From Escherichia coli (GTDB lineage Bacteria > Pseudomonadota > Gammaproteobacteria > Enterobacterales > Enterobacteriaceae), in NCBI RefSeq assembly GCF_030013595.1, contig NZ_CP122768.1: a stretch of DNA of 64,000 nt. One strand, written 5' to 3'. Shown here piece by piece: positions 6,001 through 12,000 of this stretch. A program made the position numbers. Each line of letters starts with the position of its first letter. Position 1 is the stretch's first letter.

Positions 6001-9000
6001 TTTTGCTGATGATACTTCCCTTTGCCAAATGAAATTAACCTCTTTCTCTATTACCGCGTTTTTCCAGAAGCAAGAGATTGGGTATCAAGAGGCTGGCTGC
6101 TATGATATGGCGTCTTGTTTTTTAAGCGAGGAAAGATTTTGAGTGCGGGACGCCTGAATAAAAAATCTCTGGGTATCGTGATGTTGTTATCGGTTGGACT
6201 GCTTTTGGCGGGCTGCTCGGGTAGCAAATCATCCGATACAGGAACGTATTCCGGCTCCGTTTACACCGTGAAACGGGGGGATACGCTATATCGTATTTCG
6301 CGCACCACGGGAACCAGCGTAAAAGAGCTGGCGCGACTGAACGGCATTTCCCCCCCTTACACCATTGAAGTTGGTCAGAAACTAAAACTGGGTGGGGCGA
6401 AAAGTAGCAGTACACGTAAATCAACCGCCAAATCAACGACCAAAACCGCATCGGTTACACCGTCATCAGCAGTACCGAAATCTTCCTGGCCGCCAGTAGG
6501 GCAACGTTGTTGGTTATGGCCAACGACAGGGAAAGTTATCATGCCGTATTCGACAGCTGATGGCGGCAATAAAGGGATTGATATCTCAGCTCCACGGGGG
6601 ACTCCTATTTACGCCGCGGGTGCAGGAAAGGTGGTGTATGTGGGCAACCAGCTGCGTGGCTACGGTAATCTCATCATGATTAAACACAGTGAAGATTACA
6701 TTACGGCTTACGCCCATAATGACACGATGCTGGTAAATAATGGGCAAAGCGTGAAGGTTGGGCAAAAAATCGCCACTATGGGGAGCACTGATGCGGCATC
6801 TGTTCGCCTGCATTTCCAGATTCGTTACCGTGCTACGGCAATTGATCCGCTGCGTTACTTGCCGCCTCAGGGCAGCAAGCCAAAATGCTGATGGCGAATT
6901 AATCAGCAGTCAGCAGCGCGGCACTTGCTAAGGAGAGCGTAAGGTTTATAATGCCTTACGCATCTCGAAGCGGGCGTAGTTCAATGGTAGAACGAGAGCT
7001 TCCCAAGCTCTATACGAGGGTTCGATTCCCTTCGCCCGCTCCAAACAAACATTTCTCAACGTCTACTAAAGTCCATCAAACCCACGAATATCAAGCCTTC
7101 CAGCCATTTTCATAGTTTATTAACGTCTACTCACAACCACCAGAATCTACACACAGAAGTGTATAGTAATGCGTATAGGACAAAATTTATTTTTTGGAGC
7201 TATACACATGCTGCTTTCAGACCTTGCCATCAGGCGCGCGAAGCCGAAAGAAAAGGCTTATACACTCAATGACGGTAACGGGCTTTCGTTGCTCATTGAG
7301 CCGAACGGTTCGAAAGGGTGGCGACTGCGCTACAGGTTTGCAGGAAAGCCCAAAATGTTGTCGTTGGGTGTGTACCCTGATGTGTCTCTGTCTGATGCCA
7401 GGGCGGCAAGGGATGAGGCTAAAAGGCTTCTTGCTGGTGGTATAAATCCAAGTGAGGCCAGAAAAGCCCAAAAGCGAGAACAGGCGAGCAAATTTGGCAA
7501 TACTTTTGAGGGTATTGCTCGCGAATGGTACGAAAAGCGGATCGACAGGTGGTCATCGTCATACGCCGAGGAAATGATCGAGACGTTTGAAAAAGATGTT
7601 TTTCCGTACATTGGCGGTAGGCCGATCGCAGAAATTAAGCCGATGGAATTGCTGGCGGTTCTTTCCCGTCTTAATGACCGTGGTGCGACTGAAAAATTGC
7701 GTAAGGTTCGCCAGCGATGCGGCGAGGTGTTCCGGTACGCAATCATCACCGGACGCGCCGAATATAATCCAGCCCCTGACCTGGTGAGCGCATTTGCTCC
7801 ACATAAAAAAGAGCATTACGCCTATTTGAAGGCCGACGAACTGCCGGAATTTTTCCGCGTTTTTAATACGTACACCGGAAGCCAGATCGTCAAACTGGCA
7901 ATGCGGCTATTAATTCTGACAGGTGTCAGACCCGGGGAATTACGGCAGGCAGAATGGCAGGAGATCGATTTTGATAATCGTTTGTGGGAAGTGCCTAAAG
8001 AACGAATGAAGATGCGCCGTCCGCATTGTGTGCCATTACCAGAACAGGCGATAAAAATACTGGAGCAGTTAAAAAACATGACAGGCCAGTATCAGTTTAT
8101 TTTCCCCGGTCGTATTCACCACAGTAAGCCAATGAGTGAAATGGCGATGAATGTGCTCATTCGTCGTATCGGCTATGCCGGGCGCGTTACTGGTCATGGA
8201 TTCCGGCACACCATGAGCACCATTTTGCATGAGCAGGGCTATAACACCGCGTGGATAGAGACGCAGCTCGCACACGTCGATAAAAACTCAATTCGTGGCA
8301 CATACAACCATGCGCAATATCTGGATGGTCGCCGGGAGATGCTCCAGTGGTATGCCGACTATATGGATTCGCTCGAGCATGGCGGTAACGTGGTGCATGG
8401 CAAGTTCGGAAAATGTGGATGACTGGTTGCGTATACAGTAGTAGACTTTGAGCGACGAAAGAAAAGGCTGTGTCTAGGGTCGCTCCCGAAAATCCGTACA
8501 CCTCGACGGACTGGTACAGCCACTACAGTAGAGGACGCTGAGGTGTGCGTATGATTGATATTCATGCCGAATTAAACGAATACAAAAAAGATTTTATTTC
8601 TTTACGTGAATTTCTTGAGGTCGTGCTTAAGGTCGCTGGTGATGATTATGATGTTTCAGATGTCATAACTTGGATACTCAGGAGAATAAGCGGAGAACAT
8701 ATCCGCCTGTACACAGTAAATGAATTTAAGCTGTTGGAATCTTTTTGTAACCCGTATCGGGATGAATTTGATTATGATGTTCTTTATAGAAATCTGAATG
8801 CGGTTCGGAAACGTGGTTGTTTACCTGGTGAGAGGGATGAAAATGGTTTTCTGGTGTCCGGTTATTGGGAAGATCCCGAATTTGAGAACATTGGATTTAT
8901 AAGGGGTGAAATTTTCGCAATTTTTCCCGATGTCCTTGACGCGTTAACGAAGCTGGAAGGCGCTAACTCTTCTGAAAATGACGAGGCACAAGGACGCGAT

Positions 9001-12000
9001 ATTGAAAAGAAAGAGTTGCGTACAGAGGATGATTTATTATCCCAAATCGCAATGCTGGAAAAAGAAAACGCAGAGTTAAGGGCAAGGATAGAGCAGTTAG
9101 AGCAAGAGCGCCCGATACACTTATATAAATACTGGGATAAAGACCCATTAGCTAAGGCTATTGAGATTAGAAACAGAGAGTGGGCCAATTACGATCCAGA
9201 AAATGATTTTGCCACCAGGGGAAATCAAGAAGCGATAACCAGGGAGCTTAAGCAGTGGGGGGCAAGTAATGCACTTGCAACGCTCATAGAGAGGACTGCC
9301 TGCCCTATTAACCGAGACAACAGCCAAAAGAACGCAAAGCCGGATTAACGCACCATACCGCATACCCTGAGGGTGATTTACTGTTACCCTGAGGGTATTT
9401 TTTTATCTTCCCCGTCAATTTTACCATCACCCTTAGGGTAGATTTCCTCCCGATTACCATCACCCTTAGGGTTAATTTCCTTCCGGTAACCATTAGGCCT
9501 GAGGGTATGAAAATATTCGTTATTTCTGTGCCAGGATTACCTCGTCAAATTGAGTAGACGTTATGAGGTAAATATATGTCAAATACGCTTATTCGTTTAA
9601 CAGAAGTTCAGCGTAGAACTGGATATAGCAAGGCATGGATTTATCGCCTTATGGGGCAAGGTAAATTTCCTGCATCAGTTAAAATTGGCTCGCGAGCTAT
9701 TGCTTTCGTTGAGAGTGAAATTGACGAGTGGATTAATCAGCGTATTGCGGAATCACGCGGAACAGCTACCTGATTAAATGGCTACGGGGCTATTGCCCCC
9801 AGCTATCCACCAGCAAATAAAAGTAACTTAATTCGATAGCAGGAGTTTTTATGAAATTTCCAAAAACGCCCGTACAGGGGCGGGGCTTCGTTCGGCCTGA
9901 AAACCAGAATCTGCAAAATTTCGGCGAAATTATCCCGGTTATTTCCGGCGTTATTGGCGGGAGTGAAACCACTATTGTTAGCGCCAGAGCGTTACATAAG
10001 GCGTTAGGTGTAGGGCGCGTTTTCCGTTCGTGGATCAAGGGGCGCATTGAAGAATACGGGTTCACGGAAGGCGTGGATTATGAGGTTGTTGAATATTTGA
10101 GCCGACCCGATCCGGTGAGCGCAAAATCTCGCCAGCAAACCGCTCTTGAGTACATCATCACAGTGAACATGGCGAAAGAACTGGCGATGGTCGAGCGCAC
10201 CGAACAGGGCCGCGCCGTTCGTCAGTACTTCATCAAATGCGAGGAGGAGCTACACAAGGTTGCGCCTGTTCGTTCCGCAGCGTTACGCCGGGAACTGAAA
10301 GCCCGTATCACCGTTGCCAGTTACTTTAAGCCGATGTGCGCCGCGCTGGAGGCGTACCGGGCTGAACTGGGTAAAAACACGTTCCAGCACCACTACACCA
10401 CGGAAGCCAATATGCTGGCGCGTATCGTGCTGGGTGGCATGACTGCAAAACAGTGGGCGCAGGCGAACGGCATCACAGGCGAACCACGCGACCACATGAG
10501 CACGTTGCAGCTTGAGCACCTTTCTTACCTTGAGCAGAGCAATATCACGCTGATTGAGTTAGGCCAGGACTACCACCAGCGGAAAGCTGAATTAATTCGT
10601 CTTTCGCAGCGTTGGTTAGCCCGTCGCATGGAGGAAAACAGCCATGTGTAACGCTCTGACCGTTACAAAAAGAGAAAGCGCCCCGTTGCCGGAGCGCCTT
10701 TGTGAACGAATAGCCTACTGCGCCATATTGCTTACTGTCTACGAGGCAGATTATAGCGTTGTGGTCGCACAGAGTGAAGGCGCTGATCACCGTTACTACA
10801 GCACGCCAGAAATGCAGAATATTTTGCTGCAAAATGCCGTTGGTCACGCCGTCCGGAAAGCAAAAAATTTTGCTGGTGGCGCGACTGATGCGATTTTGTC
10901 AGGTCGCCAGGTGCTGATCAATCTGATGTCTGATTTCGTTCTGGATAAAACAAAGGCGACCGCAGAGAGCCGCCAGTGGAAAAGCTACATACTTGAACGC
11001 ATCACCAACAATGCCACATTTGCGGCTGGTGGGCAATGTGATCAGTCAGATTTGGTTCGTTCCAAGGTTTGCAACGAGAGCTTTTTCCTGTGCTCTTTAA
11101 GGAATTTCTCAAGAGCAAACGAACAAGGTGCGAATCTTTCTGATTCATGTTCATGCGCTATATTTTTGCGTCGTTTCTTACGAGTTGGTGATGGTGTTTT
11201 GGTTGATTCTGTGTCGCTCATGGTGCTGTCCTGTAAAGCAATGCGCCTGCGTTCCTCAAACTATGGCGCTGATAGTGGCTATTCCTGCTCTTTGACCTTG
11301 CGTCGCTGGAGTTCTTCACGCGCGACGGTGACGAGTTGCCCGATCTCCTCGGCTGCTTTGACTCCGATTTTTTCCACCTGCGCCAGTGCATCGAGCGAAG
11401 AAACCAGGGGATTTTCTCCTCTTCCTTCTGCCTGGCGCCGGGCGATCTCCCCGCGCATGGCGGTTACTATGAATCCGGCGTTGCTTTCGCCGTCCAGTTT
11501 TACGGATTCCATGCCTTCAATAACATCATGCGGGATCCGAGCTGTCAGTGATTGTGATTTTGCGTTTTTTGAACCTGTAGCCATCTGTAATCCTCTCAAT
11601 GAAAGTGTAAGACAATATACACATAAAAAGTCTTACATAAAAGCATTGACATGTAAGCCACCCACAAATAAAGTTACTTACACCTTGTTAATGCAAGGTG
11701 CAGAAACGACGAAACCCGGCAGTGCGCGAACACTAACCGGGCTTCTAACCACCAACGATAGAGAGCTTATCGAGGTAGCTATGTTAAATCATACCACACA
11801 CCCGCAAGGGCGGGACTCGCACAACCTGAATAAATACATCTGGCGTTTTATCGCCCTGAGTACGGCACAACCGCGCGTAATTCACATCGAGGCCACCAGC
11901 GAACAGGAAGCGCGTCAGCAATCTCCTGATGGCTGCGTGATGGTATTCGCTGCCCGTATTCGCCAGGAGGTGCACCATGCATAACCTGTCAATTTCTGAC

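Follow-up and report, generated by a model that had tools for sequence, protein, structure and literature searches.

In Gram-negative phage-inducible chromosomal islands (PICIs), AlpA is the cycle activator (a master activator and excision regulator), and the helper phage turns alpA on; no repressor is known in these islands, the alpA inducer supplied by the helper has not been identified, and in some of them merR replaces alpA (PMC6092414). In the PICMIs (phage-inducible chromosomal minimalist islands) of Vibrio, the slot between int and alpA is occupied by 13 unknown families; in PICMI115, the slot gene is constitutively expressed with int, its deletion abolishes induction, and it is essential for excision, while the way in which the helper activates the early regulon was left open (PMC10803314). 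Here we describe the gene that fills this slot in an Escherichia coli island: X, a 265-amino-acid (aa) open reading frame (ORF) on the plus strand at 8551 to 9348 of a 64,000-nucleotide (nt) window, the whole stretch of DNA that was analyzed (assembly GCF_030013595.1, contig NZ_CP122768.1). We propose that X is probably a cassette-specific transcription switch of the satellite alpA gene. No description of a regulator of this kind in Gram-negative PICIs was found in the literature searched, subscription journals being outside its scope.

X runs from ATG 8551 to its stop codon and is preceded, at a distance of 7 bases, by the Shine-Dalgarno sequence GAGG (8540-8543); we prefer this start to GTG 8545 because homologues likewise begin MIDI or MVDI. 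An earlier note on this DNA had described an uncharacterized ORF of this length, AT-richer than its neighbors, encoding an acidic N-terminal domain with a coiled coil after it and devoid of recognizable enzymatic motifs, and our analysis bears this out. The peptide given there for the coiled coil, LSQIAMLEKENAELRARIEQLEQE, corresponds to residues 162 to 185. The GC content of X is 41.5% (38.9% in the part encoding the N-domain), versus 49.8% for int and 53.9% for antA/antB. At a net charge of −19 and a pI of 4.7, X is acidic in its N-terminal part, in the linker, and along the coiled coil, and approximately neutral in the C-terminal stretch of 69 aa that precedes the tail. The AlphaFold model (predicted local distance difference test score [pLDDT], 75) consists of a folded N-domain (residues 1 to 142), a disordered linker (140 to 158), a long helix (159 to 186), and a helical C-domain.

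Profile and structure searches, which the earlier note had suggested, uncovered no relative of X with a known function. X yielded only weak coiled-coil matches in Pfam, NCBIfam, and PHROGs, where a set of its diverse relatives gave coiled-coil noise only, and it matched 0 families of PADLOC-DB 2.0 at E ≤ 1. PDB profile searches with whole X and with the C-domain alone returned coiled coils or nothing. Neither X nor 120 relatives matched a helix-turn-helix (HTH) family in Pfam or NCBIfam, and a MerR match was likewise absent from Pfam; tblastn detected no homologue in 50,697 phage records. The C-domain, which we call type A, has the consensus ..DPLxLAIxIRNxEW.nYD..Q..I...L...G.S...A.AIE.VACPI.R, in which the W, A, E, V, A, C, P, and R residues are invariant or nearly so, and its AlphaFold2 model has four helices at a pLDDT of 93.9. 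PDB profile and structure searches found no relative of known function for it by structure or sequence. It defines a protein domain that is missing from Pfam, NCBIfam, PHROGs, and the PDB.

An identical protein (WP_000565286.1), annotated "hypothetical," occurs in E. coli genomes, and X DNA is present in 153 of 5426 complete genomes, near full length in 144 of these. A word-indexed search gave 43 homologues, down to 34% identity, and an exhaustive profile search of a 1.8-billion-protein library gave 121 cluster representatives (E ≤ 1e-10 for 67); none is named and none has a Pfam domain, and relatives in the AlphaFold database are "uncharacterized" proteins of Enterobacterales, Pasteurellaceae, and Cupriavidus. 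The family alignment is a mosaic of a variable N-region, a coiled coil, and a strongly conserved C-domain of about 70 aa that ends in AIE.VACPI.R. At least four unrelated N-domain types are joined to the same type-A C-domain, and the N-domain type of the window is found on quite different C-domains (P0095, P0097, P0102, P0103, P0115, P0126, P0140, and P0141; labels of the form P0xxx denote relative proteins, and those of the form L0xx compared loci). The linker and coiled-coil segment is the junction where domains swap.

Genomic context is conserved. Directly 3′ of X relatives lies an alpA-like gene in every context examined, usually with int before X and an AntA, Bro, or Rha-type gene after alpA; this X-alpA synteny was seen in Escherichia, Salmonella, metagenomic contigs, and a GC-rich genome whose 368-aa X member resembles a Cupriavidus protein. 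It also has a second setting, at tRNA-Thr behind a different integrase. The earlier note had regarded the int-alpA interval as a variable cargo slot, and comparison across related islands showed that the slot does vary: the Int and AlpA proteins of L012 are 97% identical to those of the window, and its slot protein only 19%. The idea of free cargo did not hold, as E. coli islands with the same backbone always have a single co-oriented gene there, encoding 237 to 265 aa and belonging to the X architectural class. Slot variation in these islands is exchange within this class and not arbitrary cargo. The slot departs from this arrangement in two more distant elements, EcCIMP1 and CP4-57.

The 227-bp interval between X and alpA contains four exact ACCCTNAGGGT palindromes, ACCCT(G/T)AGGGT, and a degenerate fifth, with center-to-center spacings from O1 to O5 of 22, 43, 33, and 34 bp (Table 1). 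We call these sites operators in a putative sense, their binding by X being deduced from comparative genomics. The four exact sites are the sole matches in the window with ≤1 mismatch (about 1 match is expected). Among 44 distinct type-A loci, 106 ACCCTNAGGGT sites (≤1 mismatch) lie in the 11 kb that follow the stop codons, versus 6 in the other 365 kb, an enrichment of about 590-fold. The reverse search, through 2.9 million viral contigs, yielded 25 stretches with two palindromes 21 to 24 bp apart, 21 of which are located 14 to 41 nt past a type-A stop codon. Phased arrays of this type occur almost exclusively beside X, and a type-A C-domain is always accompanied by one just downstream of its gene. 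Spacings between successive sites cluster at 22 to 23, 32 to 34, 42 to 44, and 54 to 56 bp, which are multiples of about 10.8 bp; this phasing places the sites on one face of B-DNA and suggests that B-DNA is what is recognized. Some sub-clades have variant sites; a low-GC metagenomic clade, for instance, has TACTATNATAGTA, and a Pasteurellaceae-like clade has AGGGTGATAG...CTATCACCCT.

The sequence of the repeats changes with one part of the cassette. L012, whose AntA/B protein is 83% identical to that of the window, has different repeats, AATGGTGG in both orientations, and these are kept in relatives of the L012-type protein with 54 to 57% identity. L012 and L015 have 97%-identical AntA/B proteins and different repeats; L015-type proteins are always accompanied by two TACCGCAAYTGCGGTA palindromes, even where AlpA is divergent. 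L080, which combines the window-type N-domain with another C-domain, has five CTTCCAGTTTT direct repeats. L004, L009, and L079, with the type-A C-domain and unrelated N-domain, AlpA, or AntA-slot proteins, have the same ACCCTNAGGGT palindromes as the window. Integrases that share 63% identity and use different tRNA sites are also accompanied by the same palindromes, and an integrase with 97% identity by different repeats. Taken together, these comparisons indicate that the repeats follow the C-domain type and not Int, AlpA, AntA/B, or the N-domain. The C-domain of the L012-type protein is homologous to type A (hhalign probability, 96.4%; E = 1e-9), and its last helix and tail are changed (AIE.VACPI.R to AVNL.LRP..L), as are its repeats, which is the pattern expected of a DNA-binding domain whose specificity has shifted. 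As candidate palindrome binders, AlpA, Int, AntA/B, and the N-domain were each ruled out by the identity values; a role for the palindromes as attachment (att) arm sites was also rejected, as they lie 2.3 kb from the att core and are independent of integrase type.

According to our proposal, X would be expressed together with int, from a transcript in which the RF02996 RNA serves as leader, and would dimerize or oligomerize via its coiled coil. Its C-domain would bind the five phased ACCCTNAGGGT sites (9364-9506), on one DNA face and just upstream of the alpA core promoter, and its exchangeable acidic N-domain would receive a signal, most plausibly a helper-phage protein, that alters alpA output so that the satellite cycle starts. 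DNA binding by X, the signal, and the direction of control are what we infer from the patterns described above. As to direction, we slightly favor signal-dependent activation over repression of the kind associated with Stl of the Staphylococcus aureus pathogenicity islands (SaPIs), because all sites lie upstream of the conserved alpA leader, because the proximal site would be centered near −43 of a candidate extended −10 promoter without a −35 element, and because, by analogy, the slot gene of PICMI115 is needed for helper-induced excision (PMC10803314).

Several points weigh against an alpA switch. Physical linkage between X and the repeats beside it, and close kinship among many of the loci, mean that co-inheritance could explain part of the co-variation. 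The case for DNA binding comes from genome comparison, and the C-domain matches no known DNA-binding fold and is not basic. PICIs that lack X, such as EcCIMP1 (L082, from E. coli MP1), can be induced by a helper although they have no gene of this kind. The promoter call, on which the sign of regulation depends, relies on weak consensus matches, and the PICMI slot protein IOLG is likened to X by slot and orientation, not by sequence.

The opposite sign is the most serious alternative. X could be a Stl-like master repressor acting on the same array, which would keep alpA silent and block read-through from int-X until a helper protein that contacts the N-domain releases it. As a separate explanation we consider this possible; it is nested in the proposed switch and differs from it in sign only, and repression is nearly as likely as activation. 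Multiple phased operators and exchangeable regulator-operator cassettes typify the immunity repressors of mobile elements, the variable sensor domain of X parallels the allelic diversity of Stl, and the proximal site abuts the core promoter region; moreover, excess alpA expression is harmful (PMC6092414), and tight silencing would therefore be needed, and an "antirepressor"-type gene comes after alpA. However, the sites are all upstream of the candidate −10 and the leader, with no overlap, and loss of the PICMI115 slot gene abolishes excision rather than unleashing it. Weak evidence in the same direction comes from a frameshifted X (L078) and a truncated X remnant (L058), both of which persist with alpA intact.

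It is doubtful that the palindromes are not bound by X at all, and instead form hairpins or terminators in the RNA that spans X and alpA or are recognized by a factor from the host or the helper, with the C-domain a protein-interaction module. Two of the palindromes do score as weak terminator-like hairpins, the character of the C-domain noted above would suit this explanation, and proteins with one and the same palindrome differ at residues of the last helix; nevertheless, the ~10.8-bp phasing fits duplex DNA and not RNA, T-runs after the palindromes are not conserved across loci, and a switch of repeats goes with every switch of C-domain type and with nothing else. We consider it unlikely that X is an IOLG-like accessory factor that acts with Int and AlpA in excision, the palindromes being architectural. 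Excision of PICMI115 requires its slot gene, which the authors of that study place in the excision complex as a proposal (PMC10803314), and X is co-oriented and probably co-transcribed with int, but some 2.3 kb separate the array from the att core (7026), the array lies directly before alpA, and its sites are independent of integrase type. Least likely of all is the suggestion of the earlier note, which gave yfjH of CP4-57 as an example of cargo at this position, that X is accessory cargo, a single-gene anti-phage or counter-defense system: X is AT-richer than neighboring genes, slot content varies between otherwise near-identical islands, satellites are known to carry defense genes, and the superinfection immunity of EcCIMP1-like PICIs is unexplained (PMC11773190), but nothing positive supports a stand-alone anti-phage role, PADLOC and the phage records gave no match, Pfam and NCBIfam revealed no enzymatic or effector domain, strict alpA synteny and dedicated phased repeats extend across bacterial orders with an RNA leader in most loci, EcCIMP1 shows immunity and is without X, and yfjH proved to be unrelated.

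Returning to X as a switch of alpA, two RNA elements flank it. RF02996 scores 45.5 bits (gathering threshold, 35.8) as a full-length match (1 to 71) just before X, and it is found at the same place in eight other loci with various domain types, ending 6 to 20 nt before the Shine-Dalgarno sequence of the X-class gene. The loop of its hairpin, CACCUC, can base-pair with GAGGUG at the Shine-Dalgarno of X. It was not found in L012 or L005, which are the exceptions among the loci with a slot gene that were scanned, nor in the X-less EcCIMP1 and CP4-57. Rfam types the motif as a small RNA (sRNA) gene; we place it as the leader of a protein-coding class, and it is probably a cis-acting leader rather than a free sRNA, a role made more likely by its position just before the X-class Shine-Dalgarno whatever the protein domain type. 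The Rfam scan detected no C4 or isrK immunity RNA in the window; C4 is present in the related loci L009, L066, and L082.

The second element is a hairpin predicted, by single-sequence folding, to sequester the alpA Shine-Dalgarno (Table 1). Of 27 distinct loci, 26 have the alpA Shine-Dalgarno base-paired within such a hairpin (mean z, −2.9), the stem of which varies in sequence from one cassette type to another; RNAalifold found no consensus structure on a MAFFT alignment of alpA leaders, in which cassette types misalign. A sigma-70 two-hexamer scan of the X-alpA interval found no plus-strand promoter. If the candidate at 9529 to 9537 is an extended −10, transcripts that begin there would lack the 5′ arm of the hairpin, and read-through RNA from int-X would keep alpA closed, leaving RNA initiated at this promoter as the sole translatable form.

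Some loci hold altered forms of the cassette. X is split in L040 (1279-1728), L045 (2758-3207), L046 (1514-1882), and L053 (3501-3872), where one ORF, terminating in ...PPMDFDDDIPF, encodes the beginning of the N-domain and the following ORF the remainder, with the coiled coil and C-domain. This ending looks like a copy of the C-terminal tip of the E. coli single-stranded DNA-binding protein (SSB), which may hint that the N-domain acts at SSB-interacting replication or repair proteins. L058 (3507-3701) has a C-domain-only remnant of 64 aa with a TTG start, one operator-like site, and an intact alpA, with phage-type genes alongside on the other strand; the arrangement looks like a product of recombination between a satellite and a prophage. 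L014 (strain 52F4, 3189-4577) is a deletion variant of the same glyU island. What remains is int, X, and the first operators; the stretch that begins with alpA and takes in most of the primase gene is missing, and the operator region is fused to a primase/helicase fragment. In EcCIMP1, the int-alpA gap of 427 bp has no X-type ORF, and EcCIMP1_002 was rejected as an X equivalent. The gap does contain, at ~6020 to 6045 on the minus strand, an inverted repeat, AGGGTAGCTCTACCCT, with a TACCCT half-site in the opposite arrangement, which may have arisen by chance.

The island itself is bounded by a 19-bp direct repeat, TTCCCTTCGCCCGCTCCAA, whose copies (7026-7044 and 21083-21101) delimit ~14 kb (7045-21101). 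The gene order is int, X, alpA, and antA/antB, followed, according to the annotation of near-identical loci, by genes for Icd-like, DUF4222, primase, ProQ/FinO, and PerC proteins. In common with Gram-negative PICIs, it has co-oriented int, alpA, and primase genes, a tRNA att site with a direct repeat, a length within 10 to 20 kb, and no virion or lysis genes. By gene layout it is a PICI-type satellite, helper induction and packaging being known from other PICIs. A 446-aa plus-strand ORF (10644-11984) of odd composition overlaps the minus-strand interval 11279-11599. Small genes (Icd-like and, on the opposite strand, YlcI/YnfO) are annotated in this region of related islands, and the 446-aa ORF is probably spurious.

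Table 1. Features of the island and of the X-alpA interval, with RF02996 copies in related loci
Feature	Position	Strand	Basis or remark
tRNA-Gly(CCC), integration target	6970..7043	+	ARAGORN; Rfam tRNA; 19-bp repeat
attL core TTCCCTTCGCCCGCTCCAA	7026-7044		3′ end of tRNA-Gly
Tyrosine integrase (int) of satellite	7169..8422	+	ORF; RefSeq annotation of near-identical loci
Rfam RF02996 "int-alpA RNA," probable 5′ leader of X	8467..8534	+	Rfam match
X N-terminal domain (aa 1-138)	8551..8964	+	Acidic, exchangeable, winged-helix-like beginning; proposed signal receiver
X disordered acidic linker (aa 139-158) and coiled-coil helix (aa 159-186)	8965..9108	+	Alignment, AlphaFold; coiled-coil-only Pfam/PDB matches
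X C-terminal domain, type A (aa 187-255), 10-aa tail, and stop	9109..9348	+	Proposed DNA-binding domain
Putative operator O1 ACCCTGAGGGT	9364..9374	.	Palindrome, sequence-defined
Putative operator O2 ACCCTGAGGGT	9386..9396	.	Palindrome, sequence-defined
Putative operator O3 ACCCTTAGGGT	9429..9439	.	Palindrome, sequence-defined
Putative operator O4 ACCCTTAGGGT	9462..9472	.	Palindrome, sequence-defined
Degenerate promoter-proximal site O5 GGCCTGAGGGT	9496..9506	.	
Candidate extended −10, TG-C-CAGGAT	9529..9537	+	Conserved block; related loci TGn-MATYAT; inferred
Predicted hairpin sequestering alpA Shine-Dalgarno (GAGG 9565-9568, in 3′ arm)	9537..9571	+	Single-sequence folding
alpA	9576..9773	+	ORF; RefSeq "AlpA family"; role per PMC6092414
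antA/antB-type "antirepressor" gene, conserved next gene after alpA	9851..10651	+	ORF; annotation of related loci
attR core repeat, right island end	21083..21101	.	19-bp repeat
RF02996 copy, L004	5919-5986		
RF02996 copy, L009	5918-5985		
RF02996 copy, L013	3048-3115		
RF02996 copy, L015	2941-3009		
RF02996 copy, L047	3049-3117		
RF02996 copy, L056	2904-2971		
RF02996 copy, L066	2798-2864		
RF02996 copy, L079	3911-3981		

X with its own array directly before alpA is a concrete, testable candidate for the helper-sensing step of Gram-negative PICIs. More tentatively, the X class may supply the helper-phage sensor that has been missing for many Gram-negative PICI-type satellites; it would unite a sensor, a coiled coil, and a DNA-binding domain of a new kind, preceded by RF02996 as riboregulatory leader and paired with a cognate phased array. 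If so, the N-domain would decide which helper phage an island answers, the C-domain/operator pair would insulate co-resident islands from one another, and the C-domain would be a new DNA-binding fold that recognizes ACCCTNAGGGT. Our proposal predicts that site specificity tracks the C-domain and helper specificity the N-domain. The analysis also re-assigns an orphan Rfam motif, the int-alpA RNA, as the probable leader of a protein-coding gene class, and it cautions that a variable island slot need not be a defense hotspot.

Among known systems, the iolg/icg genes of PICMIs resemble X in occupying the int-alpA slot, in being co-oriented with their neighbors, and in comprising many unrelated families, and in the one case tested (PICMI115) the slot gene is required for helper-induced activation (PMC10803314). 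They differ in that iolg overlaps int by 1 to 13 nt, whereas X is separated from int by a 128-nt gap (8423-8550) that holds RF02996, and in that operator arrays have not been reported for iolg and one is present beside X. YfjH of CP4-57 shares with X its location between intA and alpA, but yfjH occupies the other strand in a divergent arrangement with alpA, and its product has no sequence similarity to X (BLASTP E = 0.22).

Stl of the Gram-positive SaPIs is likewise encoded by the satellite next to int and controls the switch to the excision-replication cycle. Like X as proposed, it is a modular protein in which one part binds DNA and another varies strongly (in Stl, this is the sensor of helper proteins), and its alleles differ between related islands; X shows the same variability of the proposed sensor, in its alternative N-domains on one C-domain and in one N-domain on several C-domains. 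However, Stl has an N-terminal XRE-type HTH, while X lacks an HTH signature and its putative DNA-binding domain is C-terminal, and stl is divergent from its target operon with operators in the shared intergenic region, while int, X, and alpA are all on the plus strand with sites between the X stop and the alpA start. The two proteins are not homologous. Phage immunity cassettes, with a CI-type repressor and its operators, share with X the swapping of regulator and sites as a module between similar backbones and the presence of several helically phased sites that act, or in X would act, cooperatively, but their regulator has a different protein fold and acts at a divergent promoter pair; X has no such pair, and its proposed target is a single satellite activator gene. 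MerR proteins, which are dimeric, resemble X as proposed in that a coiled coil joins DNA-binding and signal-binding domains; their order (N-terminal winged HTH, coiled coil, effector domain) is reversed in X, which has no MerR Pfam match and whose sites lie outside the promoter spacer. X thus belongs to none of Stl, phage immunity cassettes, or PICMI iolg/icg, although these are functionally nearest to it, and what the evidence suggests is a modular regulator-operator cassette for the control of alpA, a variation on the master regulators of mobile elements that uses a domain not described before.

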